NCBI GenBank assembly: GCA_964532215.1
Contig: CAZHHU010000001.1
Span: 10,971-64,820 of the forward strand
From: an uncultured Geminicoccaceae bacterium
GTDB lineage: Bacteria > Pseudomonadota > Alphaproteobacteria > Geminicoccales > Geminicoccaceae
DNA length: 53,850 bases
Direction: 5' to 3'
Below are positions 1 to 47,555 of this stretch, one piece after another. The notes beneath the pieces were generated by a model. The model searched no databases, was not told where the DNA came from, and worked only from the letters and a program-made list of their open reading frames with translations. Position 1 is the stretch's first letter. Each line of letters begins with the position of its first letter. Position numbers and translations under genes: made by a program.

Positions 1-1469
1 TGGCTTCGAGTCGCAACCGTCGCATCTCCTTCGGCCGCATCATCACATTCGTCTTGCTGTTCATCGGATCCGCAGCCGCGGTCGGGCTCGTGCTCCCGTT
101 TCGACTTCCTCTCCCACCATCCGGGCACGAGACGGCCGTGCCGCGACCGCCACAGGCGGGTGCGATTCCCGATGTCGGGTCCGGGGCCACGACGCCCGGC
201 AAGACCGAGGCTTCCCCGTTCGTCCCCGGGAAGGGAATCCAGTGGCGGCCCGAGAAGGGCTTCGAGATCGCCGCCCGGCTTCCCGATCCGCTGCCCACGC
301 CGCCGGCGGCCATGGAGCCGCGGAGCCTGCCCGAACGCCTCGCCCGCAAAGTCGAGGTGTCCAAGGGCGATACGCTCATCGACATTCTGCTGCGGGCCGG
401 CATCCCGCGCGCGGAGGCGCATGAGGCCCTCTCGCGCCTCAAGGAGGTGTTCGACCCGCGGCGGCTGCGCCCGGGGCAGTATCTCACCCTGGAGCTCGAA
501 CGGACGCGGAAGCAGGATCGGGCGCTCAGGCTCGCCTCGCTGTCGCTGAGCCTCGATTGGGCCCGGGATGTGCGCCTGTCACGGGATGCGCGCACGGGTG
601 ACTTCGTCGTCGGCGAGGTCGAACGGCCGCTTCTGCGCCGTACCGAGCGCATCGCGGGCGTGGTGGAGGACAGCCTCTACCGCTCGGCGCGGCGGCACGG
701 CCTGCCGCGGGAGACGCTGCACGCTCTCATCCGCATCTTCAGCTGGGATGTCGACTTTCAGCGCGACCTCCAGCCCGGCGACCGCTTCGAGGTTCTCTTC
801 GAACGCCTCTATACGGCGGACGGTCTTCGCAGCCGCGGCGGCGACGTCCTCTTCGCATCGCTCGAGCTCGCCGGTCGCCCGGTTACGGCCTATCGCTTCC
901 GGCGCGCGGACGGCACGATCGCCTATTTCGACCGCGACGGACGGTCGCTGCGCAAGTCGCTGCTGCGCACGCCCATCGACGGGGCGCGCCTCACCTCCCG
1001 CTTCGGCATGCGCCGGCATCCCATCCTCGGCTACACCCGCATGCACAGAGGCGTCGACTTCGCTGCGCCGCGGGGCACGCCCGTATATGCCGCCGGTGAT
1101 GGCACGATCGTCTTCGCCGGGCGCAAGAGAGGCTACGGCAATTTCATCCGCATCCGTCACAACGCGCAGTTCGGGACCGGCTACGCCCACCTGAGCCGGA
1201 TCGCCAGGGGCATCCGTCGGGGAAAGCGCGTCCGGCAGGGGCAGGTCATCGGCTATGTGGGCAGCACGGGACTCGCTACCGGTCCCCACCTCCACTACGA
1301 GGTCTACCGCAACGGCCGCGCCATCAATCCTCTGAAACTGCGCACGATCGCATCCGACCGGCTGCGCGGGCGGGAGCTCGAGCGCTTCCGGCAGGTTGTG
1401 GCCGAAATCGACGCCCTGCGGCGGCAGCTCGAAGGAGAGCCGCAGCTCGCCAGCTACGACCTGCCCTGA
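1..1469 (+). CDS. M23 family metallopeptidase (LytM-type murein endopeptidase); 5' end probably outside the window
   Basis: ORF 54..1469 starts at TTG, but the frame stays open back to nt 3 (RNRRISFGRIITFVLLFIGSAAAVGLVL looks like a cytoplasmic tail plus TM helix). C-terminal M23 signature: HRGVDFAAPRGTPVYAAGDG...GYGNFIRIRH...GSTGLATGPHLHYEV. Confidence 0.85.
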   Translation, partial: ASSRNRRISFGRIITFVLLFIGSAAAVGLVLPFRLPLPPSGHETAVPRPPQAGAIPDVGSGATTPGKTEASPFVPGKGIQWRPEKGFEIAARLPDPLPTPPAAMEPRSLPERLARKVEVSKGDTLIDILLRAGIPRAEAHEALSRLKEVFDPRRLRPGQYLTLELERTRKQDRALRLASLSLSLDWARDVRLSRDARTGDFVVGEVERPLLRRTERIAGVVEDSLYRSARRHGLPRETLHALIRIFSWDVDFQRDLQPGDRFEVLFERLYTADGLRSRGGDVLFASLELAGRPVTAYRFRRADGTIAYFDRDGRSLRKSLLRTPIDGARLTSRFGMRRHPILGYTRMHRGVDFAAPRGTPVYAAGDGTIVFAGRKRGYGNFIRIRHNAQFGTGYAHLSRIARGIRRGKRVRQGQVIGYVGSTGLATGPHLHYEVYRNGRAINPLKLRTIASDRLRGRELERFRQVVAEIDALRRQLEGEPQLASYDLP

Positions 1470-2919: not shown

Positions 2920-4659
2920 TCACATGTCCGGCAGCAGCTCCAGCGGGAGCATCTCCGATGGCGCCTCGACCGCCGGCACGAGCGCCAGTGCCGGGGGCAG
3001 AAGCTGCTGCGTGTAGAAACGCGCGAGGCCTGCAAGAGCCTCTCCCGCCGCGTCGGCATGGGCACGTCGGGCCAGCCGGGCGAGGAGAAAGCCGCCGAGG
3101 CTCCAGCCGAAGAGCTGGAGATAGGGGGTCGCCGCCGCTTCGCGATCGTCCCGCCCCGCCTCCTGAAGCCCGCGGGTGGTGCGCTCGAGGATGCCCAGCG
3201 CCTCCTCGAGCCGCGGCAGCAGGTCGACGAGCGGCGAGTCGGCGAGGGCCGCGAGCTCCTCGCCCAGCTCGGCGAACAGCGCGAAGGGGGCGCGTCCCTC
3301 ATCGAGGGCGAGCTTGCGCTGCACGAGGTCGATCGCCTGGATGCCGTTCGTGCCCTCGTAGATGGGCGTGATGCGGACATCCCGGTAGAGCTGGGCGATG
3401 CCGGTCTCCTCGATGTAGCCGATGCCGCCGTGAACCTGCAGCGCGAGCGAGCAGATCTCGACCGCGCGATCGGTGCACCAGGCCTTGCACACCGGCGTCA
3501 GCAGGGCCACGCGCTCGGCGGCCCGCCTTCGCGCTTCGGGCTCCCTCTCCCGATAGCTGCGGTCGACCCAGGCGCAGGTGAGCTGGCAGAGCGCCCGCAT
3601 GGCGACGAGGACGGCGCGCATGGTGGTGAGCATGCGACGGACGTCCGGATGCGCGATGATCGGCACCGCTCGTCCGTCCCGGCGCCCCTGCACCCGCTCG
3701 CGCGCATAGGCGAGCGCCTTCTGGAACGCGGCCTCGGCGATGCCCAGCCCCTCGATGCCGACGGCGATGCGGGCATTGTTCATCATCGTGAACATGCACC
3801 GCATGCCGCGGTTCTCCTCGCCGAGCAGGAAGCCGACCGCACCGCCCTCATCGCCGTAGCTCATGACGCAGGTGGGGCTGCCGTGGATGCCGAGTTTCTC
3901 CTCGAGCTTGAGGCAACGCAGATCGTTCCTCGCCCCCGGCCGGCCGTCGGCATCGGGCAGGAACTTGGGCACGAGGAACAGCGAGAGGCCGCGCGTGCCT
4001 TCAGGCGCGCCGGGAAGCCGGGCGAGGACGAAATGGACGATATTCTCGGCGAGATCGTGATCACCGAAGGTGATGAAGATCTTCTGTCCGAAGATCCGGT
4101 AGCGTTCGCCGTCGCGCTCCGCCCGGGTCCGCGCCGCACCGACATCGGAGCCCGCCTGCGGCTCGGTCAGGCACATCGCCGCGGTCCAGCGGCCGGACAC
4201 CAGAGGTGGCAGGTAGACCCGCTTCTGCTCCGGGCTTCCGTGGGCGAGCAGGGCCTCGACTCCGGCCTGGGTGAGCAGCGGGCAGAGCTCGAAGGTCATG
4301 CTGGCGGCGTTCCAGATCTCGGCGACCGCGCCGCCGAGAAGCCAGGGCAGCCCCTGGCCGCCCCACTGCTGCGGAAACACCAGCCCGTTCCATCCCCCTT
4401 CGCTGAAGCGGCGGTAGGCCTCGCGCACCGCTTGCGGCATGCGGACCTCGCCTTCGACGAGCCGGGGCGGCTCGCGGTCGAGCAGCCGTCGCAGCGGGAG
4501 GAGCACCCCGGCTGCGAATTTTCCCGCCTCTTCGAGGATTGCCCGCACCGTCTCGAGATCCGCCGCCTCCAGCCCCTCGAGGCGGGCGATCGCCTCGATG
4601 TCGCCGATATGACGAAGGTGGAGCAGGATCTCCTCGACCGGCGCCCGGTATTCGCTCAC
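2920..4659 (-). CDS. acyl-CoA dehydrogenase, long form with C-terminal extension
   Basis: ORF 2920..4800. Start moved to GTG 4659, which is preceded by GGAGAGGGA. The longer start would run into the tRNA promoter region. ACAD motifs: MCLTEPQAGSDVG, GQKIFITFGDHD, QVHGGIGYIEETGIAQLYRDVRITPIYEGTNGIQAIDL. Confidence 0.9.
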   Translation of the reverse strand: MSEYRAPVEEILLHLRHIGDIEAIARLEGLEAADLETVRAILEEAGKFAAGVLLPLRRLLDREPPRLVEGEVRMPQAVREAYRRFSEGGWNGLVFPQQWGGQGLPWLLGGAVAEIWNAASMTFELCPLLTQAGVEALLAHGSPEQKRVYLPPLVSGRWTAAMCLTEPQAGSDVGAARTRAERDGERYRIFGQKIFITFGDHDLAENIVHFVLARLPGAPEGTRGLSLFLVPKFLPDADGRPGARNDLRCLKLEEKLGIHGSPTCVMSYGDEGGAVGFLLGEENRGMRCMFTMMNNARIAVGIEGLGIAEAAFQKALAYARERVQGRRDGRAVPIIAHPDVRRMLTTMRAVLVAMRALCQLTCAWVDRSYREREPEARRRAAERVALLTPVCKAWCTDRAVEICSLALQVHGGIGYIEETGIAQLYRDVRITPIYEGTNGIQAIDLVQRKLALDEGRAPFALFAELGEELAALADSPLVDLLPRLEEALGILERTTRGLQEAGRDDREAAATPYLQLFGWSLGGFLLARLARRAHADAAGEALAGLARFYTQQLLPPALALVPAVEAPSEMLPLELLPDM

Positions 4660-4778
4660 CGTCCCTCTCCGCTCGCATCGCCGACGCGCTCTATGACCCA
4701 GGGCTCCGGCCCCGGCAAGAAGCCTGCCGCGCAGATCGCGCGAGGCGGCATGCGTCGGCGCCCCCTCGCCCCGGCCGC

Positions 4779-4807
4779 TTGACATCGGCAGGCGGCCCAC
4801 CCATACC
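4779..4807 (+). promoter_or_regulatory. candidate sigma70-type promoter of tRNA-Ala
   Basis: TTGACA (4779..4784), 17-nt spacer, CATACC (4802..4807). It ends about 12 nt upstream of the mature tRNA 5' end. Confidence 0.4.
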
Positions 4808-4819
4808 GAAGTCCGCGGT

Positions 4820-4895
4820 GGGGCCGTAGCTCAGTTGGGAGAGCGCCAGAATCGCACTCTGGAGGTCGGGGGTTCAAGTCCCCTCGGCTCCACCA
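4820..4895 (+). tRNA. tRNA-Ala (anticodon CGC)
   Basis: 76 nt folded by hand into a cloverleaf: acceptor GGGGCCG/CGGCTCC with the G3:U70 alanine identity pair, anticodon loop AUCGCAC (U33, CGC, A37), T-loop TTCAAGT, encoded CCA. Confidence 0.95.
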
Positions 4896-4982: not shown

Positions 4983-5055
4983 AGATCCGTGCTCATCGCG
5001 CTCTGGGCGCCGCAGGCATATTCCCGCGACGCGGCATTTCCCGGAGGGTTCTTCC

Positions 5056-13947: not shown

Positions 13948-14160
13948 TCAGCTCTCTTCCTCGCCCTCTTCCGCCTCTTCCCGCTCACGACGGATCAGAA
14001 CCTGCCGCCCCCGGTACATGCCGGTCTTGAGGTCGATGTGATGGGGACGGCGGAATTCGCCCGTATCCCTGTCCTCGACGACCGCCGGCGGAGCGATGCG
14101 ATGATGGGTGCGGCGCTTGTCGCGACGCGACTTCGAGACCTTCTTCTTGGGAACGGCCAT
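13948..14160 (-). CDS. rpmF: 50S ribosomal protein L32, with an acidic C-terminal tail
   Basis: [22 protein letters not shown]... is the canonical L32 N-terminus. The tail [13 protein letters not shown] is an extension. Confidence 0.95.
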
Positions 14161-19364: not shown

Positions 19365-21967
19365 TCCCTGAGCCCGCGCGGCGATGCGGTGCCCGCCGGC
19401 TGCGAGCGGCGGTACAGCCAGCCGATCGCAACGAGGGCGATGCCCAGCCCGGCGAAGGAAAGCGCCCGGTAGAGGCCTTCCGTCCGTTCGAGGTCGACGA
19501 GGAACACCTTGAGGGCGGTGACGGAGGCGACCAGCAGACCGGCGCGGCGGGTCGCCGCGTCTTCGCGCAGGCGGCCGTATACGAACAGCGCCGCCGCGAT
19601 CGCGATCCAGCTCAGGGATATGAGCAGCACCTCGAGCGGCCCTGCCGCAGCCGTCAGCACCGCGCCGCGGAGCAGGTGGCGGATCTCGAGGGCGGACCAG
19701 GTGAGCAGGAAGACGAGCGCTGCCGTACCCGCTGCCGCACCCGCGACCGGAGCGAGCTTCGCGGCGCGGCGGGCGAGGCGCGCGAGCAGGAGCGCGGGCG
19801 CGAGATAGGCCGGAGCGAGCCCGTCGAGCAGCGGCAGAAGCCCGACGTCCCAGCCGCCGAGGGCGGGATTCGCCGTATCCAGAAGAAGTTCGAGGGCTGT
19901 GGGCAGGGATGCGAATGCGAAGATCGCCCAGAGGTGACGGACGCTCGGCGGCAGAATGCCGGCATTGGCGAGCGTCGCGAAAGCCGTCGCGACAGCGATC
20001 CACACCGCGAGCGCGAGCCCCCGCTCCGAGGGCGGATGGTCGATGAGGGCGGGCCCGTAGCCGTTGACGACGAGAAGAAGGAGGGTGAAGGCGGCGAGGA
20101 GGGCAATGTCCCGCGCCGTCGCGAGCAGGAGCATGGGAACTGGGGATCCACGTCTGAGCAAGCTGCTCGCGGCGCCGCAGCACAGCCCCGGCAGCAGCGC
20201 TCCGAGGAGGACCTCCTCCATCTCCGGGCTCAGATCCTCATAGGCCGCCCGGATCACGAGCAGGGCGGCGGCGAGGCCGAACGCGGCGGCACCGCCGGCA
20301 AGGCCGGGCACGGCAAAGCGCCGGCGCAGGATGGCGGCGAGGAGCGCGATGAGCGCAAGCGCGAGGCGTAGCCAGGTCGCGGCGAAGAGAAAGGCCGCGC
20401 CGAGTGCCAGGGCCGCGAGGGCGCCGACGACATAGGCGGCGGTCGCCGCCTCGAGGCGGTCGTCGCGCGCCGTTACCCGTGCCGCTGCCGCGGCGAGCAG
20501 CGCGAGACCGAGGGCGAGATGGGGCCAGGGCAGCGGAATGCCCACGGCTTCGAGCCGCAGCCGCAGCAGTGCGAGAGCCGCGAGCGGAACAGCTGCCGAG
20601 AGGCTCGCCCACAGCCCGCCGGGGGGTCTGCGGCGTGCGGCCAGAAAGCCGAGGGCGGCGAAGCCCGAGCCGGTCGCGAGCGCGGCCAGGAGCAGCCCGC
20701 GGATGCCGCGGGGGTGGGGAAACAGCGGCGCAAGGCCGACCCCGGGCTCGAAGAGGGGATCCTGCAGCGCGGAAAGATCGATTTCCCACAGCCCGACCAC
20801 GGCGAGCGCGAGCAGCGCACCCAGAAAGGCCGGCGCGCGCATCGGCTCGTACAGCAGGCTCGCGGCCGCACCGGCGAGGGCGAGCAGGATCAGCACCGCG
20901 ACGAGGCCCGGGGTGAAGCCCGTCGCGACCGCCGCCGCGATTGCGGCCAGGCCGGCGAGGGCGTAGCTCGCGGCAAGCGCGAGCCGCATCGGCGGCCGCG
21001 GCGGAGGGACCAGATTGGCTGCGGCGAGAAGTGCGGGCAGCGGCGCGTTCGCCGCCCCGAGGGCGAGCGCGAGCAGCGCTGCCGCATCCGCCCGGCGGAT
21101 GCCGTCGCTCTCGAACAGGACGGACAGCCAGTCCGCGAACAGGGCGAGGGAGATCCAGAAGGCCGAGGCCGGCAGCACGACGAACAGGAGCAGCCACCAC
21201 CAGCTGCGCAGCAGGGCGATGAGCGAGAGGGCCGTGGCCAGCACCGCGAGATAGCCGAAGGTCACCCAGGGTTCGGCCACACCCGCATCGACCACAGCCG
21301 GCACCGCAAAGCCGCCGAGCGCCGCGAGCAGTGCATGGGGCCAGCCGAAACGCCAGCCGCAGGCGAGGCCGAGCAGACTCGTGAGCGCGAGAAGCGCGAA
21401 GGCCGGATCCGCGGCAAGCTGCGCATAGCGGGCGTGCGCGGCAAAGATGTCGGCGTAGAGGGTGACGAGGCCGCCAGCGGCGAGCGCGGCCGGAGCGGCC
21501 GGTGCTCCCGCCTTTCCAGCCCCTGACCGTGCGGATGCGAACCAGCCGCCGACGACGGCCACAAGACCCAGGAGGCCGATCGCGGCGAGCCTGAGGCGGA
21601 TGCCGACGAACCCCTGCTCGACCGCCCACAGCACGCCGAACAGACCGCCCGCGGCGAGCGCCAGTCCCCCGACCCAGACGAGGCCGCGTTCCGCGAAGCG
21701 TTGCTCGACGCTTGCGATGTCGGGTGCGGGAGCCGGAGGTGGCGGGGGCTCGGGCGGCCGCATCTCGATCGGAGCTTCGGCCTGCTCGCGGGGTGCAGGC
21801 CCGACCGGCACGGCGAGACGTCGCTCGAGGGCGGCGACGCGGCGCTCGAGCCGTCGCAGGCGGGCCGCGGTGAAGAAGGCGAGAAACGGTGAGAGGAGCA
21901 GCGCGAGCGCGATGAGACCGGCGAGCCACACGATGGGAGAGGCGATGGGAAGAAAGGGAAAGAACAT
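19337..21967 (-). CDS. DUF2339-like large polytopic membrane protein
   Basis: ORF 19337..22033, with the ATG at 21967 (MFFPFLPIASPIVWLAGLIALALLL). An N-terminal TM is followed by RLRRLERRVAALERRLA, a Pro-rich linker and more than 20 hydrophobic helices. Confidence 0.8.
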   Translation of the reverse strand: MFFPFLPIASPIVWLAGLIALALLLSPFLAFFTAARLRRLERRVAALERRLAVPVGPAPREQAEAPIEMRPPEPPPPPAPAPDIASVEQRFAERGLVWVGGLALAAGGLFGVLWAVEQGFVGIRLRLAAIGLLGLVAVVGGWFASARSGAGKAGAPAAPAALAAGGLVTLYADIFAAHARYAQLAADPAFALLALTSLLGLACGWRFGWPHALLAALGGFAVPAVVDAGVAEPWVTFGYLAVLATALSLIALLRSWWWLLLFVVLPASAFWISLALFADWLSVLFESDGIRRADAAALLALALGAANAPLPALLAAANLVPPPRPPMRLALAASYALAGLAAIAAAVATGFTPGLVAVLILLALAGAAASLLYEPMRAPAFLGALLALAVVGLWEIDLSALQDPLFEPGVGLAPLFPHPRGIRGLLLAALATGSGFAALGFLAARRRPPGGLWASLSAAVPLAALALLRLRLEAVGIPLPWPHLALGLALLAAAAARVTARDDRLEAATAAYVVGALAALALGAAFLFAATWLRLALALIALLAAILRRRFAVPGLAGGAAAFGLAAALLVIRAAYEDLSPEMEEVLLGALLPGLCCGAASSLLRRGSPVPMLLLATARDIALLAAFTLLLLVVNGYGPALIDHPPSERGLALAVWIAVATAFATLANAGILPPSVRHLWAIFAFASLPTALELLLDTANPALGGWDVGLLPLLDGLAPAYLAPALLLARLARRAAKLAPVAGAAAGTAALVFLLTWSALEIRHLLRGAVLTAAAGPLEVLLISLSWIAIAAALFVYGRLREDAATRRAGLLVASVTALKVFLVDLERTEGLYRALSFAGLGIALVAIGWLYRRSQPAGTASPRGLRDYLRRISGS

Positions 21968-22078: not shown

Positions 22079-22957
22079 ATGAGCAAGCCGATCCGGCCCC
22101 GGCGGAGCGTGCTCTACATGCCGGGGGCCAATCCGCGCGCACAGGAGAAGGCGAAGACCCTTCCCGTGGACGGGGTGATCCTCGACCTCGAGGATGCGAC
22201 CGCGCCGGAGGCGAAGGTCGAGGCACGGGCCACGGTGCGGCGCACGCTCGAGCAGCGCGAGGCCTACGGTCGCCGCGAACTCGTGGTGCGCGTGAACGGG
22301 CTGGACACGCCCTGGGGCTATGAGGATCTCGCCGTGATGGCGCGGGCCGGTGCCGATGCCATCCTGCTGCCGAAGGTCGACGACGCGGAGATGGTACGGC
22401 GCGCGGTCGCGGTGCTCGAGGCCCACGGCGCGCCGGAGGAGCTCGCGATATGGTGCATGGTGGAGACGGCGCGCGGTGTCCTCCATGCCGAACAGATCGC
22501 GGACTCCCACCCGCGCGTGAGCTGTTTCGTCATGGGCACCTCGGATCTCGCCCGGGAGCTCAACTGCGCCCACACCCCCATGCGCCTGCCGATGCTGACC
22601 TCGCTCGGCCTCTGCCTGCTCGCCGCCCGCGCGGCCGGACTCGCGATCCTCGACGGCGTCCATCTCGACCTCCAGGACATGGAGGGTTTCGAGGCCGCCT
22701 GCCGGCAGGGGCGCGAGCTCGGCTTCGACGGCAAGACCCTGATCCACCCCAGGCAGATCGAGGCCGCGAACCGCGCCTTCGCGCCGAGCGAAGAGGAGGT
22801 GGCCAAAGCGCGGCGGATCATCGAGGCGTGGCAGGCGGCCAAGGCCGAGGGTCGGGGCGTGGTCGTGGTCGATGGACGGCTCGTCGAGAATCTCCACGTC
22901 GTCATGGCCGAGCGCACGCTCGCCCTCGCCGAGGCGATCCGGGCGATGGAAGGCTGA
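22079..22957 (+). CDS. HpcH/HpaI aldolase / citrate lyase beta (CitE) family CoA-ester lyase (malyl-CoA lyase/thioesterase-like)
   Basis: Track ORF 22004..22957, with the ATG at 22079. RRSVLYMPGANPRAQEKAKTLPVDGVILDLEDA, VRVNGLDTPWGYEDL, MVETARG, GFDGKTLIHPRQI. Confidence 0.88.
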   Translation: MSKPIRPRRSVLYMPGANPRAQEKAKTLPVDGVILDLEDATAPEAKVEARATVRRTLEQREAYGRRELVVRVNGLDTPWGYEDLAVMARAGADAILLPKVDDAEMVRRAVAVLEAHGAPEELAIWCMVETARGVLHAEQIADSHPRVSCFVMGTSDLARELNCAHTPMRLPMLTSLGLCLLAARAAGLAILDGVHLDLQDMEGFEAACRQGRELGFDGKTLIHPRQIEAANRAFAPSEEEVAKARRIIEAWQAAKAEGRGVVVVDGRLVENLHVVMAERTLALAEAIRAMEG

Positions 22958-22971
22958 ACGCCGCGCAGGAC

Positions 22972-23003
22972 AAAAAAAGGCGGCTCCCGCTCACGGGAGC
23001 CGC
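22972..23003 (-). terminator. Rho-independent terminator (minus strand)
   Basis: Minus strand: GCGGCTCCCG-TGAG-CGGGAGCCGC (perfect 10-bp stem, 23003..22980), then C and T7 (22978..22972). The plus-strand reading has no U-tail. Confidence 0.75.
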
Positions 23004-23074
23004 AACACCATCGGCCAGGGAGGGAAGGGAAACTTGCCGCAATCGACGGACGTCCTGCGCCCGCCTCTTGCTGC
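22972..23074 (-). ncRNA. candidate ~100-nt trans-acting sRNA with a C/U-rich anti-SD tract (MmgR/alpha-r8-like architecture)
   Basis: It has its own promoter (23080..23108) and intrinsic terminator (22972..23003). The GUUUCCCUUCCCUCCCUGG tract lies at 23032..23015. There is no credible ORF. The 5' end is inferred from -10 spacing only. Confidence 0.5.
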
Positions 23075-23079
23075 GCCGC

Positions 23080-23108
23080 AACATAATGGCCCGCCCGCAA
23101 AGCTGCAA
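23080..23108 (-). promoter_or_regulatory. candidate sigma70-type promoter of the sRNA
   Basis: Minus strand: TTGCAG (23108..23103), 17-nt spacer, TATGTT (23085..23080). The -10 is overlapped by the 18-nt box shared with the phasin promoter. Confidence 0.45.
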
Positions 23109-23265
23109 TGACCGCTCCGGAATGGCAGCCATGCATGCGGTGCATGGCTCTCTTGTCGGCCGTCAAGGACGTGCGCGGCCTTCGCAGCCGCGAAGGGCCC
23201 GCCGCGCCGTCGTCCATGCGTAAAGGAAGCACCGGCAGCAGGCGGATCTCCCGCCTGCGCCCGTC

Positions 23266-36022: not shown

Positions 36023-36400
36023 TTACGCCGCGAGCTTGCGCATCTCGTCGAGGTTGGCGGCGGCGCGCTTGACGAGCAGCTCGACGACCTGGCTCTGGGT
36101 CTTGAGCCCGAGGTCGACGGTCTCGCGGATCTGGCCCACCGCCTTCTCCAGCGCCGCCTTCGCCTCCTCGGCGTAGCTCGCGGGCTGCTTCTTGGGATCG
36201 AGGCCCTTCATGAGCTCCTCGGCGCGGGCGATCGCCTCCTCGAACAGCGCCGCCTGGCGCTTTCCGAGGGCGGTCGAGAAATCGAACAGGATCTTCTGGG
36301 CCTGGAACCAGGTCTCGAGGTTCTCCCGCTGGAGCCGGAGCAGGGCCTCGAGATCGAACTTCGGAAGAACGGGTGACACCGTCTGCGCCTTGGCGCTCAT
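36023..36400 (-). CDS. phaP: phasin family protein (PHB granule-associated)
   Basis: 125 aa, all-helical. FDLEALLRLQRENLETWFQAQKILFDFSTALGKRQAALFEEAI is typical of alphaproteobacterial phasins. SD GAGGAGG lies 6 nt before the ATG. Confidence 0.88.
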   Translation of the reverse strand: MSAKAQTVSPVLPKFDLEALLRLQRENLETWFQAQKILFDFSTALGKRQAALFEEAIARAEELMKGLDPKKQPASYAEEAKAALEKAVGQIRETVDLGLKTQSQVVELLVKRAAANLDEMRKLAA

Positions 36401-36436
36401 GGCTTACCTCCTCGCGCGTTTTGCTGCGGCGCAACA

Positions 36437-36465
36437 TAGATAGGCCGGACCGACCCCGGATGCAA
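36437..36465 (-). promoter_or_regulatory. candidate phaP promoter
   Basis: Minus strand: TTGCAT (36465..36460), 17-nt spacer, TATCTA (36442..36437). It is overlapped at -10/+1 by the 18-nt box TATGTTGCGCCGCAGCAA (36438..36421). Confidence 0.45.
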
Positions 36466-36490
36466 GGAAAAAATTGTGCATCGCACAAAA

Positions 36491-37096
36491 TCAGCCGGCG
36501 GGCGAGGGCCGCGTGGACCGTCGATCCGCGAACAGCGGCCCGAGGCCGGCGAGGCGGCGGAGGAGCCAGCTCCGCAGCCTTTCCGGATCCTGCCGCGAAT
36601 CCAGCGCCCAGCGCGCGAGTGCCCCGAGGAAGAGAGCGGTGACGGCGATCTCCTGGGCGCTGCGCCTGAGGCCTGTGGATTCGATGCGCGCGGCATCGAG
36701 CATCCAGTGCACGAGCCGCGAGAGATCGAAGACCATGGGCAGCCAGTGGTGGGGATGGAAGGGATAGAGCTTGTGGGCGATCATCTCCCGCGCCTGGTCG
36801 CGATGCGGCTCGACGGCCTCGAACCAGCGCAGCATGACGAGCAGCAGCCGGTCCCGCGCCGAAAGGCGGTGGAAACCCTCGGGAGGCTCGGCCACCACCG
36901 CATCGAGTGCCCGGTCGAAATAGGCGTTGGCGATCGCGTCGAGATCGCGGAAATGGGCGCGGAGCTCGGAGAGCGGCAGATCGAGGGCCTCTGCGATGTG
37001 GAACATGCGCAGATCGGCCCAGCCCCGCTCCGCGGCGAGGGCGAGCGCGGCATCGACGATGCGCCGCTCGAAGGCGCGGCGGCCGGCGTAGCTCAT
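36491..37096 (-). CDS. TetR-family transcriptional regulator (tentative)
   Basis: 201 aa. N-terminal TetR-type HTH: IVDAALALAAERGWADLRMFHIAEALDLPLSELRAHFRDLDAI. ATGA overlap with the upstream dehydrogenase gene. Confidence 0.7.
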   Translation of the reverse strand: MSYAGRRAFERRIVDAALALAAERGWADLRMFHIAEALDLPLSELRAHFRDLDAIANAYFDRALDAVVAEPPEGFHRLSARDRLLLVMLRWFEAVEPHRDQAREMIAHKLYPFHPHHWLPMVFDLSRLVHWMLDAARIESTGLRRSAQEIAVTALFLGALARWALDSRQDPERLRSWLLRRLAGLGPLFADRRSTRPSPAG

Positions 37097-46259: not shown

Positions 46260-46277
46260 GGGACGGGAAAGCCGCAG

Positions 46278-47555
46278 ATGCCGATCACCCTCACCATGCC
46301 GGCGCTCTCGCCCACGATGAGCGAAGGAAAGATCGCCCGCTGGCTCAAGAAGGAGGGCGAGAAGGTCGAACCGGGCGACGTCCTCGCCGAGATCGAGACC
46401 GACAAGGCGACGATGGAATTCGAGGCCGTGGACGAGGGCACCCTGGGCAGGATCCTGGTTCCGGAGGGAACCGAAGGAGTGAAGGTGGGCACGCCGATCG
46501 CCGTGCTCCTCGAGGAGGGCGAGGATCGCTCGGCGCTTGAGGGGTTCGAGCCCCGGGCCGAGGCGGCAGCCGCGGCCGTGGCCGAGGAGGCCGGCGCGCC
46601 GCCGCGGCTCGAGCCCGAGGTGACGGCAGCGGTGGCGGAAAAGCCGCCCGCCGCAGGCCGCCGCATCTTCGCAACCCCCCTCGCCCGCCGCATCGCCCGC
46701 GAGGCCGGCGTGGATCTCGCGGCGCTCCGGGGATCGGGGCCGCACGGCCGGATCGTCAAGGCGGACGTCGAACGGGCGATCGAGGAGCTGCGCAGGGCGG
46801 CGGCGCGTGCGCCCGCGGCCGCACCCGGGATCACGCCGCCACCGGCCGCCTTCGCCCCCTCGCCGGGCATGCGCTACGTCGAGATCCCCCTCTCCAACAT
46901 GCGCAAGGTCATCGCCCGGCGGCTCACCGAGGCGAAGCAGCAGATCCCGCATTTCTACCTCACCGTGGACTGCCGCCTCGACCGGCTGCTCGAGGTGCGG
47001 CGCGAGCTCAATGCGCGCCTCGGTGAAGGTCTCCGGATCTCGGTCAACGATTTCCTCATCAAGGCGGTGGCGCTCGCGATCCGCGACGTGCCCGATGTCA
47101 ACGTGAGCTTCGGCGGCGACCGCCTGTACCGTTACGAGGACATCGACATCGCGGTCGCGGTCGCGACCCCGGGCGGTCTCATCACCCCGATCCTGCGCAG
47201 GGCGGATGAAAAGGGTCTCGCCACCATCGCCAGGGAGATGAAGGATCTCGCCGCGCGGGCCCGCGAGGGCAAGCTCAGGCCGGAGGAATACCAGGGCGGC
47301 GGGTTCACGATCTCCAATCTCGGCATGTACGGCATCCGGCAGTTCGAGGCCGTCATCAACCCGCCGCAGGCCTGCATTCTCGCCGTCGGCATGGGCGAGA
47401 AGCGGCCCGTGGTGGTGGAGGATCGGGTCGAGATCGCGACCATGATGACCGTGACCCTGTCCGTCGACCACCGGGCGGTGGACGGCGCGCTGGGTGCGGA
47501 GTTCCTGAAGGCCTTCAGAGGCTACGTCGAACAGCCGCTCACGCTGCTGCTCTGA
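46278..47555 (+). CDS. pdhC: pyruvate dehydrogenase E2 (dihydrolipoyllysine-residue acetyltransferase)
   Basis: Lipoyl domain [13 protein letters not shown], subunit-binding domain [34 protein letters not shown], catalytic [17 protein letters not shown]. Confidence 0.95.

Follow-up and report, generated by a model that had tools for sequence, protein, structure and literature searches.

What is encoded in the 308-nt intergenic gap between the end of an HpcH/CitE-like CoA-ester lyase gene (22957, plus strand) and the end of a COQ9-domain gene (23266, minus strand) in the 53,850-nt stretch of DNA examined here (hereafter the window), which comes from an uncultured Geminicoccaceae bacterium (contig CAZHHU010000001.1 of assembly GCA_964532215.1)? 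The initial annotation, made from the DNA letters alone, placed the gap correctly between these two genes and proposed that it holds an unannotated riboregulator, possibly a homologue of the Sinorhizobium meliloti RNA MmgR or, alternatively, an RNA derived from the 3' untranslated region (3' UTR) of the COQ9-like gene. Comparative analysis bears out the first of these proposals. The gap contains a predicted free-standing, conserved gene for a small regulatory RNA (sRNA) of approximately 100 nt, a structured RNA that recurs in varying gene contexts and carries its own promoter. On balance it is probable that this gene is an independent unit whose RNA acts in trans through a C/U-rich seed, that it is controlled by the regulator PhaR, and that it represents a distinct subfamily related to the alphaR8 RNAs.

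The sRNA unit is located on the minus strand, which is the strand of the COQ9-like gene, 190 nt past the stop codon of that gene. The elements that first drew attention to it are all found where they had been reported: the promoter-like pair TTGCAG-N17-TATGTT, and a perfect 10-bp hairpin with a TGAG loop that is followed by C and T7. The terminator hairpin reads GCGGCTCCCG-TGAG-CGGGAGCCGC (23003..22980), with the C at 22979 and the T7 at 22978..22972, and it is listed in a terminator scan with 10 pairs, nine of which are G-C. The C/U-rich tract GUUUCCCUUCCCUCCCUGG is also present, with a one-base slip in its position, as it begins at 23033 rather than 23032 (23033..23015). Every copy of the unit contains the same three parts, namely a 5' hairpin that varies in sequence while remaining paired (hairpin 1), a near-invariant linker AGUUUCCCUUCCCUCCCUGGCCGAUGGU, and an intrinsic terminator. 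The C/U core of the linker is UUUCCCUUCCCUCCCU, which is followed by an invariant GGCCGAUGGU, and the linker is mostly unpaired in partition functions. The covariance-model match to the window copy spans 22971..23076. The fold of the window sequence taken singly is weak evidence (z-score of -1.77, with 12 of 200 shuffles folding as well); it is the comparative evidence, consisting of stem compensation, a conserved promoter and operator enrichment, that places the unit beyond chance.

Homologous copies and stem covariation

A metagenome scan for the 18-mer TTTCCCTTCCCTCCCTGG from the linker returned 54 loci, seven of which go on with CCGATGGT and the terminator (L040, L047, L048, L065, L082, L072 and L073). 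L072 is the window's own strain and L073 is identical to L003, and neither was counted as a distinct copy. R1, a covariance model derived solely from the sequence of the window, recovers all of the scan-found copies at 50-70 bits and additionally reveals a second, tandem copy in L047 (1164-1264), which is one base off the 18-mer search pattern. Eight distinct copies are available for comparison: those in the window, L003, L040, L048, L065 and L082, plus the two tandem copies in L047. All eight come from uncultured Geminicoccaceae-like alphaproteobacteria with varying gene neighbourhoods, and the window unit recurs in at least six other metagenomic or metagenome-assembled genome (MAG) contigs. 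A BLAST search of the locus against the PLSDB plasmids gave no homologue. A family model of the eight copies (R2) scores them at 75-105 bits. The two L047 copies (1164-1264 and 1349-1451, plus strand) lie approximately 185 nt apart on a 233-kb metagenomic contig, and each is equipped with its own upstream dyad, -35/-10 pair and PhaR-type box.

Alignment with MAFFT followed by RNAalifold missed hairpin 1 because its stems vary in both sequence and length among the copies. The hairpin was recovered via the single-sequence covariance model and structure-guided realignment. The resulting alignment (A6) is fitted to the model, and register shifts account for some of its double changes in the terminator. 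Standard pairs make up 94.9% of its cells compared with 73.3% in shuffles, and 15 of the 24 pairs have changed on both sides. The covariation score is 0.519 and drops to 0.128 or less once the 3' partners are shifted by one to three columns, and none of 500 shuffles attains any of the five measures. Half of the hairpin 1 pairs (7 of 14) have changed on both sides with 92.8% of cells paired, while the terminator has 8 of 10 such pairs and 97.4% of cells paired, a count to which the register shifts contribute. The inner stem of hairpin 1 is wholly different among copies and always pairs, being GGCGGGCG/CGUCCGUC, GGAAC/GUUCC, GGCCGG/CCGGCC or GGACGG/UCGUCC. By comparison, UUUCCCUUCCCUCCCUG.CCGAUGGU in the linker is identical across the eight copies with the exception of one G-to-A change in copy 1 of L047.

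The copies are 106, 104, 103, 103, 103, 101, 101 and 98 nt long; since these lengths differ by non-multiples of three, there is no conserved reading frame. The terminator stem is present in all eight copies, and the U-run that follows it is weaker in L040, L048 and L065, where it is interrupted (UUUUCCUU or UUUCCCUU).

Promoter elements and the phasin gene

The -35 and -10 hexamers have counterparts with the same spacing in the homologues, including TTGTGT-N17-TATTTG in L003 and TTCTCC-N17-TAGTTT in L040, L048 and L065. A sigma-70 scan omits the window promoter because its -35 element matches the consensus at three of six positions. Superimposed on this core is a putative operator (Table 1) fitting W2N2YGCRNYGCRN2W2, which is the motif of S. 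meliloti PhaR (AniA), as validated by gel shifts on phaP1, phaP2, phaZ and mmgR (bioRxiv 10.1101/2025.02.17.638283). The pattern occurs six times in the window versus 0.94 expected, and its strict TGC..GCA form occurs three times versus 0.04 expected, once at the sRNA site and twice upstream of a phasin gene. The full operator pattern is found at the equivalent position in seven of the eight sRNA copies.

The phasin gene (phaP; 36023..36400, minus strand) is identified by a Pfam Phasin_2 match of 35.6 bits against a cut-off of 24.9, and its promoter is nearly identical to that of the sRNA from the -10 hexamer to +10. The TATGTTGCGSCGCAGCAA string of the sRNA -10 region also precedes phaP, and the 16-mer TGTTGCGSCGCAGCAA is common to the two promoters in the same orientation relative to the genes, indicating that the sRNA and proximal phasin core promoters are near copies of each other. 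The region upstream of phaP (36401-36490, 90 nt, minus strand) contains both of its PhaR-type operators together with a TTGCAT-N17-TATCTA promoter. Judged by its promoter, the sRNA gene most likely belongs to the PhaR regulon and would be repressed by PhaR.

A second conserved element lies further upstream. This dyad (Table 1) is centred approximately 65 nt upstream of the predicted start, or 62-67 nt before the start of the RNA model in the six copies measured, with transcription predicted to begin approximately 3 nt downstream of the model start. The exact dyad core is found, out of 86 loci, only upstream of sRNA copies; it is conserved there, weakly so at copy 2 of L047. The lack of a U-run after the dyad indicates that it is not an intrinsic terminator, and the conservation of its sequence, beyond mere pairing, points to a protein-binding site. 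Its position is typical of LysR-type regulators, and it contains T-N11-A. A probable role of the dyad is to bind an activator, which may be of the LysR type by analogy with suhB of Sphingopyxis, whose promoter is activated by a LysR-type regulator via an upstream T-N11-A (bioRxiv 10.64898/2025.12.09.693200). NtrC was also considered for this site and rejected, as the TGCACC of the window has no counterpart in the other copies and the second half-site does not fit the NtrC consensus.

Table 1. Positions of the sRNA gene, its promoter elements and the related phasin operators in the window
Feature	Position	Strand	Description
Upstream dyad GCCATGCA-CCGCA-TGCATGGC	23128..23148	-	Consensus GCCATGCR-N5-YGCATGGC; putative activator site
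-35 hexamer TTGCAG	23103..23108	-	Conserved position in homologues
-10 hexamer TATGTT	23080..23085	-	17-nt spacer from -35
PhaR/AniA-type operator ATGTTGCGGCGCAGCAA	23068..23084	-	Putative; fits W2N2YGCRNYGCRN2W2; overlaps -10 and predicted start
Predicted sRNA transcript	22972..23076	-	Approximately 100 nt; start predicted at about 23072-23076, 3' end in U-run at 22972
5' hairpin (hairpin 1)	23036..23074	-	Outer stem GC.GCAA/UUGC.GC and inner 8-bp stem in minimum-free-energy folds
Single-stranded linker AAGUUUCCCUUCCCUCCCUGGCCGAUGGUGUU	23004..23035	-	C/U-rich putative seed (23033..23015), then CCGAUGGU
Intrinsic terminator	22972..23003	-	G+C-rich stem of 10 bp with a UGAG loop, followed by C and U7
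Proximal PhaR-type operator of phasin gene	36421..36437	-	16/17 identical to sRNA operator, same orientation
Distal PhaR-type operator of phasin gene	36473..36489	-	Core TGCGATGCA on the strand of the gene

Other matches to the PhaR pattern were also recorded. Three looser ones in the window are located at 5021-5037 (CGCG-type core, upstream of a YceD-like gene), at 14117-14133 (CGCG-type core, upstream of a gene for endonuclease III) and at 20759-20775 (TGCAGCGCG, inside a DUF2339 gene), and are probably false positives driven by G+C content. An extra full PhaR-type box, TTGTTGCGTCGCAGCAA, is present in L003 (1975-1991, plus strand) within an aminotransferase coding region, approximately 230 nt upstream of the sRNA copy. 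The gene upstream of phaP (36491..37096, minus strand) matches TetR_N below threshold (19.6 bits against a cut-off of 24) and is followed by a 3-hydroxyacyl-CoA dehydrogenase gene.

Relationship to the alphaR8 RNAs

Two features define the alphaR8 family (PMC12559287, citing Lagares 2016): a Rho-independent terminator and, preceded by a weak hairpin, the internal single-stranded 10-mer UUUCCUCCCU. What the initial annotation had stated about MmgR, including the UUUCCUCCCU motif, the dependence on Hfq and the effects on phasin and polyhydroxybutyrate (PHB), agrees with the literature (PMC12559287, PMC8401924, PMC7143759). The window RNA resembles MmgR in its overall layout, in which a 5' hairpin is followed by a single-stranded C/U-rich core and a Rho-independent terminator. 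The variant UUCCCUCCCU (23026..23017, minus strand), inside the 16-nt C/U tract, shares 9 of the 10 bases of the alphaR8 10-mer, and the alphaR8 model of Rfam, RF00519, is the best Rfam match. A further likeness is the PhaR/AniA-type dyad over the core promoter and the tie to the phasin/PHB regulon through shared operators, as mmgR of S. meliloti is repressed by AniA (PMC8401924) and bound by PhaR (bioRxiv 10.1101/2025.02.17.638283).

Promoters of authentic alphaR8 genes strengthen this connection. Seven alphaR8 genes carried on plasmids or chromids of Azospirillum, Niveispirillum, Indioceanicola, Roseomonas and Methylobacterium (L087-L093) served as a positive control, and RF00519 scores them at 56-75 bits. 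All seven have a YGCRNYGCR core no more than about 50 nt upstream of the RNA start, and five of the seven, including those of Azospirillum and Roseomonas, carry the TGCRNYGCAGCA box, which is the same extended string as in the window. The upstream dyad also has relatives in this group: its right half, GCATGGCT(G/A)CCATTC, is found with a 14/15 match upstream of the RF00519 genes of A. oryzae and A. lipoferum, while the A. brasilense copy shares CATGGCTGC with the dyad region of the window. PhaR control may, on the pattern of these promoters, be a general trait of the alphaR8 family. Tandem duplication, seen here in L047, is also known of alphaR8 (PMC12559287). The shared promoter features, the rank of RF00519 as top Rfam match and the tandem copies together fit common descent better than convergence. 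Among these control genes, the PhaR-type core is usually TGCRNYGCAGCAT, and the RNAs are without annotation in the records.

Several observations weigh against this reading. RF00519 (mmgR, suhB) is the top match of the window but reaches 19.6 bits against a gathering score of 41 (E 0.099), so that the covariance check envisaged by the initial annotation gives the expected family at a score below threshold. At the gathering threshold, the sole Rfam hit in the window is a tRNA, and 20 related loci give none. What aligns with RF00519 is the core and terminator, the 4-bp hairpin of the model being deleted, and the model is sub-threshold on L003 (18.6 bits) and on copy 1 of L047 (21 bits) as well. 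The exact 10-mer is absent from the window. The 5' hairpin, which precedes the core in all eight copies and covaries, is a stable bipartite stem of 14 pairs rather than the weak 4-bp hairpin of MmgR, the RNA is approximately 100 nt long compared with 77 nt for MmgR, and its core is expanded to UUUCCCUUCCCUCCCU plus an invariant GGCCGAUGGU that has no MmgR counterpart. In the opposite direction, R2 gives true alphaR8 genes 13-18.5 bits, compared with 75-105 for its own copies, and by these models the RNAs of the two groups separate clearly. The operator is also differently placed, on the -10 element and start site here versus between -35 and -10 in S. meliloti (PMC8401924). The L082 sRNA has no full operator match, and a motif search of the window found no phaR or hfq gene. 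The invariance of the linker is partly built in by the search, since six of the seven homologous copies were found by the exact 18-nt linker pattern, leaving the flanks and the model-found copy as the only unbiased witnesses. Finally, the weak U-run (UUUUCCUU) of L048 and L065 is followed by a same-strand gene, such that read-through and a leader role are possible at those two loci.

The predicted pairing partners add to these points. The initial annotation had noted that the C/U tract contains the complement of Shine-Dalgarno sequences such as that of phaP, and the phaP ribosome-binding site (RBS) does not emerge as a favoured partner. Its Shine-Dalgarno GAGGAGG forms approximately five contiguous pairs with the tract, the duplex energy is -12.6 kcal/mol, and the site ranks 26th among 35 crude translation-initiation regions, making it a poor predicted partner. 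The full linker pairs with phaP at -18.5 kcal/mol, an average value for the window (mean -17.4, standard deviation 4.8) that ranks approximately 10,000th of 26,906 windows; phaP as a specially good partner was discarded on these duplex energies. The best duplex in the window, at -37.9 kcal/mol, lies inside the pyruvate dehydrogenase E2 gene (site 47209..47248, plus strand; gene 46260..47555), where CACCAUCG-CCAGGGAG is complementary to the invariant CUCCCUGGCCGAUGGUG over 8+8 nt with one bulge. This duplex was discarded as evidence because 16 of 23 shuffled seeds do equally well or better. These predictions do not support direct pairing between the sRNA and phaP, and the 54-kb window does not allow any target to be named. 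In S. meliloti, the effect of MmgR on phasin may be indirect (PMC8401924).

Taken together, the missed RF00519 threshold and the absence of the exact 10-mer mark the RNA as a variant, and the suggestion of an MmgR homologue stands with respect to the top Rfam match and the shared PhaR/AniA-type operator, and falls short with respect to the score and the 10-mer. We conclude from these comparisons that the eight copies represent a divergent, uncatalogued subfamily of alphaR8 (MmgR/SuhB/SisA-D) rather than catalogued members of RF00519.

Comparison with the other alphaR8 members is consistent with this placement. SuhB of Sphingopyxis granuli TFA is described as repressing the RBS of its targets with Hfq through an anti-Shine-Dalgarno seed, targeting thnR and phbB, and limiting PHB accumulation with phbB as a direct target (bioRxiv 10.64898/2025.12.09.693200). 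The window dyad near -65 fits the T-N11-A pattern; PhaR control, proposed for the present gene, is not reported for SuhB in the consulted text of that source. SisA-D of Caulobacter crescentus use a conserved single-stranded C/U core to pair with partners rich in G and A, one of which is the sponge RNA CrfA (PMC12559287). These RNAs are multi-copy, adjacent or dispersed, to which the two tandem copies in L047 are comparable. In contrast to the mutually unrelated Sis promoters, one promoter architecture is found across the copies described here, and the core sequence and hairpin of SisA-D differ from those of the window RNA.

The strongest competitor of common descent is convergence, in which a PhaR-controlled, trans-acting sRNA that is not kin to alphaR8 arrived at the same design of hairpin, C/U seed and terminator that is seen in CcsR, SorY and anti-hemB, and acquired the PhaR operator because the physiology is shared. 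The split between the two groups under RF00519 and R2 is what convergence would predict, as are the absence of the exact 10-mer and of any RF00519-consensus counterpart to the hairpin and the CCGAUGGU block. Unrelated C/U-seed sRNAs also score at about the RF00519 level. SorY (RF02651) of Rhodobacter sphaeroides reaches 29.9 bits at copy 1 of L047 and outscores RF00519 at the sub-threshold copies, CcsR1 reaches approximately 18 bits, and anti-hemB 17.1. SorY and CcsR1-4 (RF02791) share with the window RNA a CCUCCC-type motif and a terminator, but the matches are weak, far under the gathering scores of 111 and 65.3, and neither has a PhaR link. The motifs of the CcsR RNAs sit in hairpin loops. 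Convergence leaves unexplained the TGCRNYGCAGCA operator string common to five of the seven true RF00519 promoters, the 14/15 match to the dyad upstream of the Azospirillum copies, the standing of RF00519 as the top match for the window with sub-threshold recurrence at L003 and copy 1 of L047, and the tandem arrangement. It is consequently considered unlikely relative to descent from an alphaR8 ancestor.

If the alphaR8-related reading is correct, transcription would start from approximately 23073 at a weak promoter of the sigma-70 type. PhaR, bound to the operator across the -10 element and start, would repress the sRNA when PHB granules are absent, and granules would sequester PhaR and thereby switch on the sRNA together with phasin. 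Release of PhaR by granules is a model confirmed for the phasin genes of S. meliloti (bioRxiv 10.1101/2025.02.17.638283). Transcription would further be subject to an activator, possibly a LysR-type regulator, acting at the -65 dyad. The C/U seed (UUUCCCUUCCCUCCCU) would then pair with purine-rich, Shine-Dalgarno-type sites in several mRNAs or with a sponge RNA, probably in an Hfq-dependent manner, and lower translation as in other alphaR8 RNAs. The outcome would be a PhaR-sRNA branch of carbon-storage control. Of this picture, the comparisons show the layout of the gene and its conservation, the covarying stems, the operator in common with phaP and the likeness to promoters of true RF00519 genes; that the gene is transcribed, that PhaR and an activator bind, that Hfq is required and which targets are met are inferred.

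To our knowledge, no riboregulators of PHB storage other than the MmgR/alphaR8 RNAs are known in alphaproteobacteria, and both the direct targets of these RNAs and the full control of their transcription are poorly defined. The present subfamily would carry the MmgR-like kind into an uncultured lineage, mostly thermophilic or from soil, where Rfam annotation finds nothing; RF00519 misses the subfamily, and R2 recovers every copy. The PhaR operator is the most conserved feature tying these genes together across orders and appears to be their deepest conserved trait. The conserved -65 site offers a handle for fishing out the activator, and the long invariant linker provides a defined seed for target prediction with complete genomes. 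A bolder version of this reading is advanced only tentatively: the copies may form a separate, uncatalogued sRNA family in uncultured Geminicoccaceae-like bacteria, with a two-block linker (C/U seed plus GGCCGAUGGU), and PhaR control together with the -65 dyad may be an ancestral, portable cassette shared with Azospirillum alphaR8. In that case, the feed-forward circuit of PhaR, sRNA and phasin would be older than the divergence of several alphaproteobacterial orders, and GCCATGCR-N5-YGCATGGC would pinpoint the binding site of a second regulator.

Genomic contexts and neighbouring genes

The position of the unit, on the same strand as the COQ9-like gene and 190 nt past its stop codon, raises the question of whether the RNA is a cis element, either a processed fragment of the COQ9-like 3' UTR or a leader or attenuator for a downstream gene. 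The latter finds some encouragement in L048 and L065, where a 2-hydroxyacid-dehydrogenase-like open reading frame (ORF) on the same strand follows the terminator with the poor U-run by a few tens of nucleotides and read-through may couple the two. The survey of contexts speaks against both forms. Of 32 loci fetched for relatives of the COQ9-like gene, 30 have no sRNA copy in the flanks covered, and the contig of L005 carries the L048 copy elsewhere. A copy lies in the fetched stretch only at L003, where an extra gene separates it from COQ9; L003 being the only locus with an adjacent copy, synteny with COQ9 is not conserved. A convergent CitE-like neighbour is found only in the window and L003. 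The copies in L040, L047, L048 and L065 adjoin a HAD-like hydrolase, with or without the 2-hydroxyacid-dehydrogenase-like ORF, and the context of L082 is different again.

The gene contents of the CitE side agree with this picture. Five CitE-like orthologues (83-87% identity) have no sRNA copy alongside, and one of these, L097, shares its assembly (GCA_900174565.1) with the L082 copy, indicating that the sRNA gene has moved within the lineage. An sRNA derived from a 3' UTR is recognized by a constant upstream gene and the lack of its own promoter; the upstream gene here differs in L003, L040, L047, L048, L065 and L082, and the promoter elements travel with the RNA, as a separate dyad, -35, -10 and operator accompany every copy, both tandem ones of L047 included. 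These results contradict the earlier alternative of a COQ9-like 3'-UTR RNA. With respect to a leader, the gene that comes next runs convergently in three loci (the window, L003 and L047), hence there is nothing to lead into. A cis element is, on this evidence, very improbable, and an independent, trans-acting gene is the preferred reading.

Two ORFs (76 and 79 amino acids), one of them on the opposite strand, run across the sRNA region. The 76-residue ORF (22902..23132, minus strand) exists as the initial annotation had listed it and matches no Pfam family. Coding readings of this ORF and of the opposite-strand ORF were discarded on account of the missing Pfam match and the copy lengths that differ by non-multiples of three. 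The least probable explanation of all is that no functional RNA is made and that the region consists of DNA sites plus a hairpin stabilising or terminating the convergent CitE-like transcript, or of a short protein-coding ORF, for while the silence of the sigma-70 scan, the modest fold z-score and the two ORFs can be cited for it, the compensatory changes in both stems show that pairing of the RNA is under selection, a terminator role cannot explain a near-identical 26-nt unpaired stretch where flanking proteins are 73-85% identical, and the hairpin read on the plus strand has no U-run after it.

The flanking proteins themselves have relatives in similar organisms. The COQ9-like protein is at most 74% identical to proteins of MAGs labelled Rhodospirillales or Geminicoccaceae, and the CitE-like protein is 83% identical to its counterpart in 'bacterium HR40'. 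In L096, where no sRNA was found, a gene for N-formylglutamate amidohydrolase (FGase; 4053-4841, minus strand) is located two genes away from the CitE-like orthologue; an FGase gene is reported to be the synteny partner of mmgR in other alphaproteobacteria. In L007 (approximately 3155-3260) and L001 (approximately 3150-3260), a MaoC-like dehydratase gene occupies the position after COQ9. Two cores, TGCGCTGCAGCA and TGCGCCGCG, are present in the leader of this gene along with a hairpin whose loop is C/U-rich (UUCCUCCCCUCU in L007), and the MaoC-like gene could be a PhaR-controlled gene with an anti-Shine-Dalgarno element in cis.

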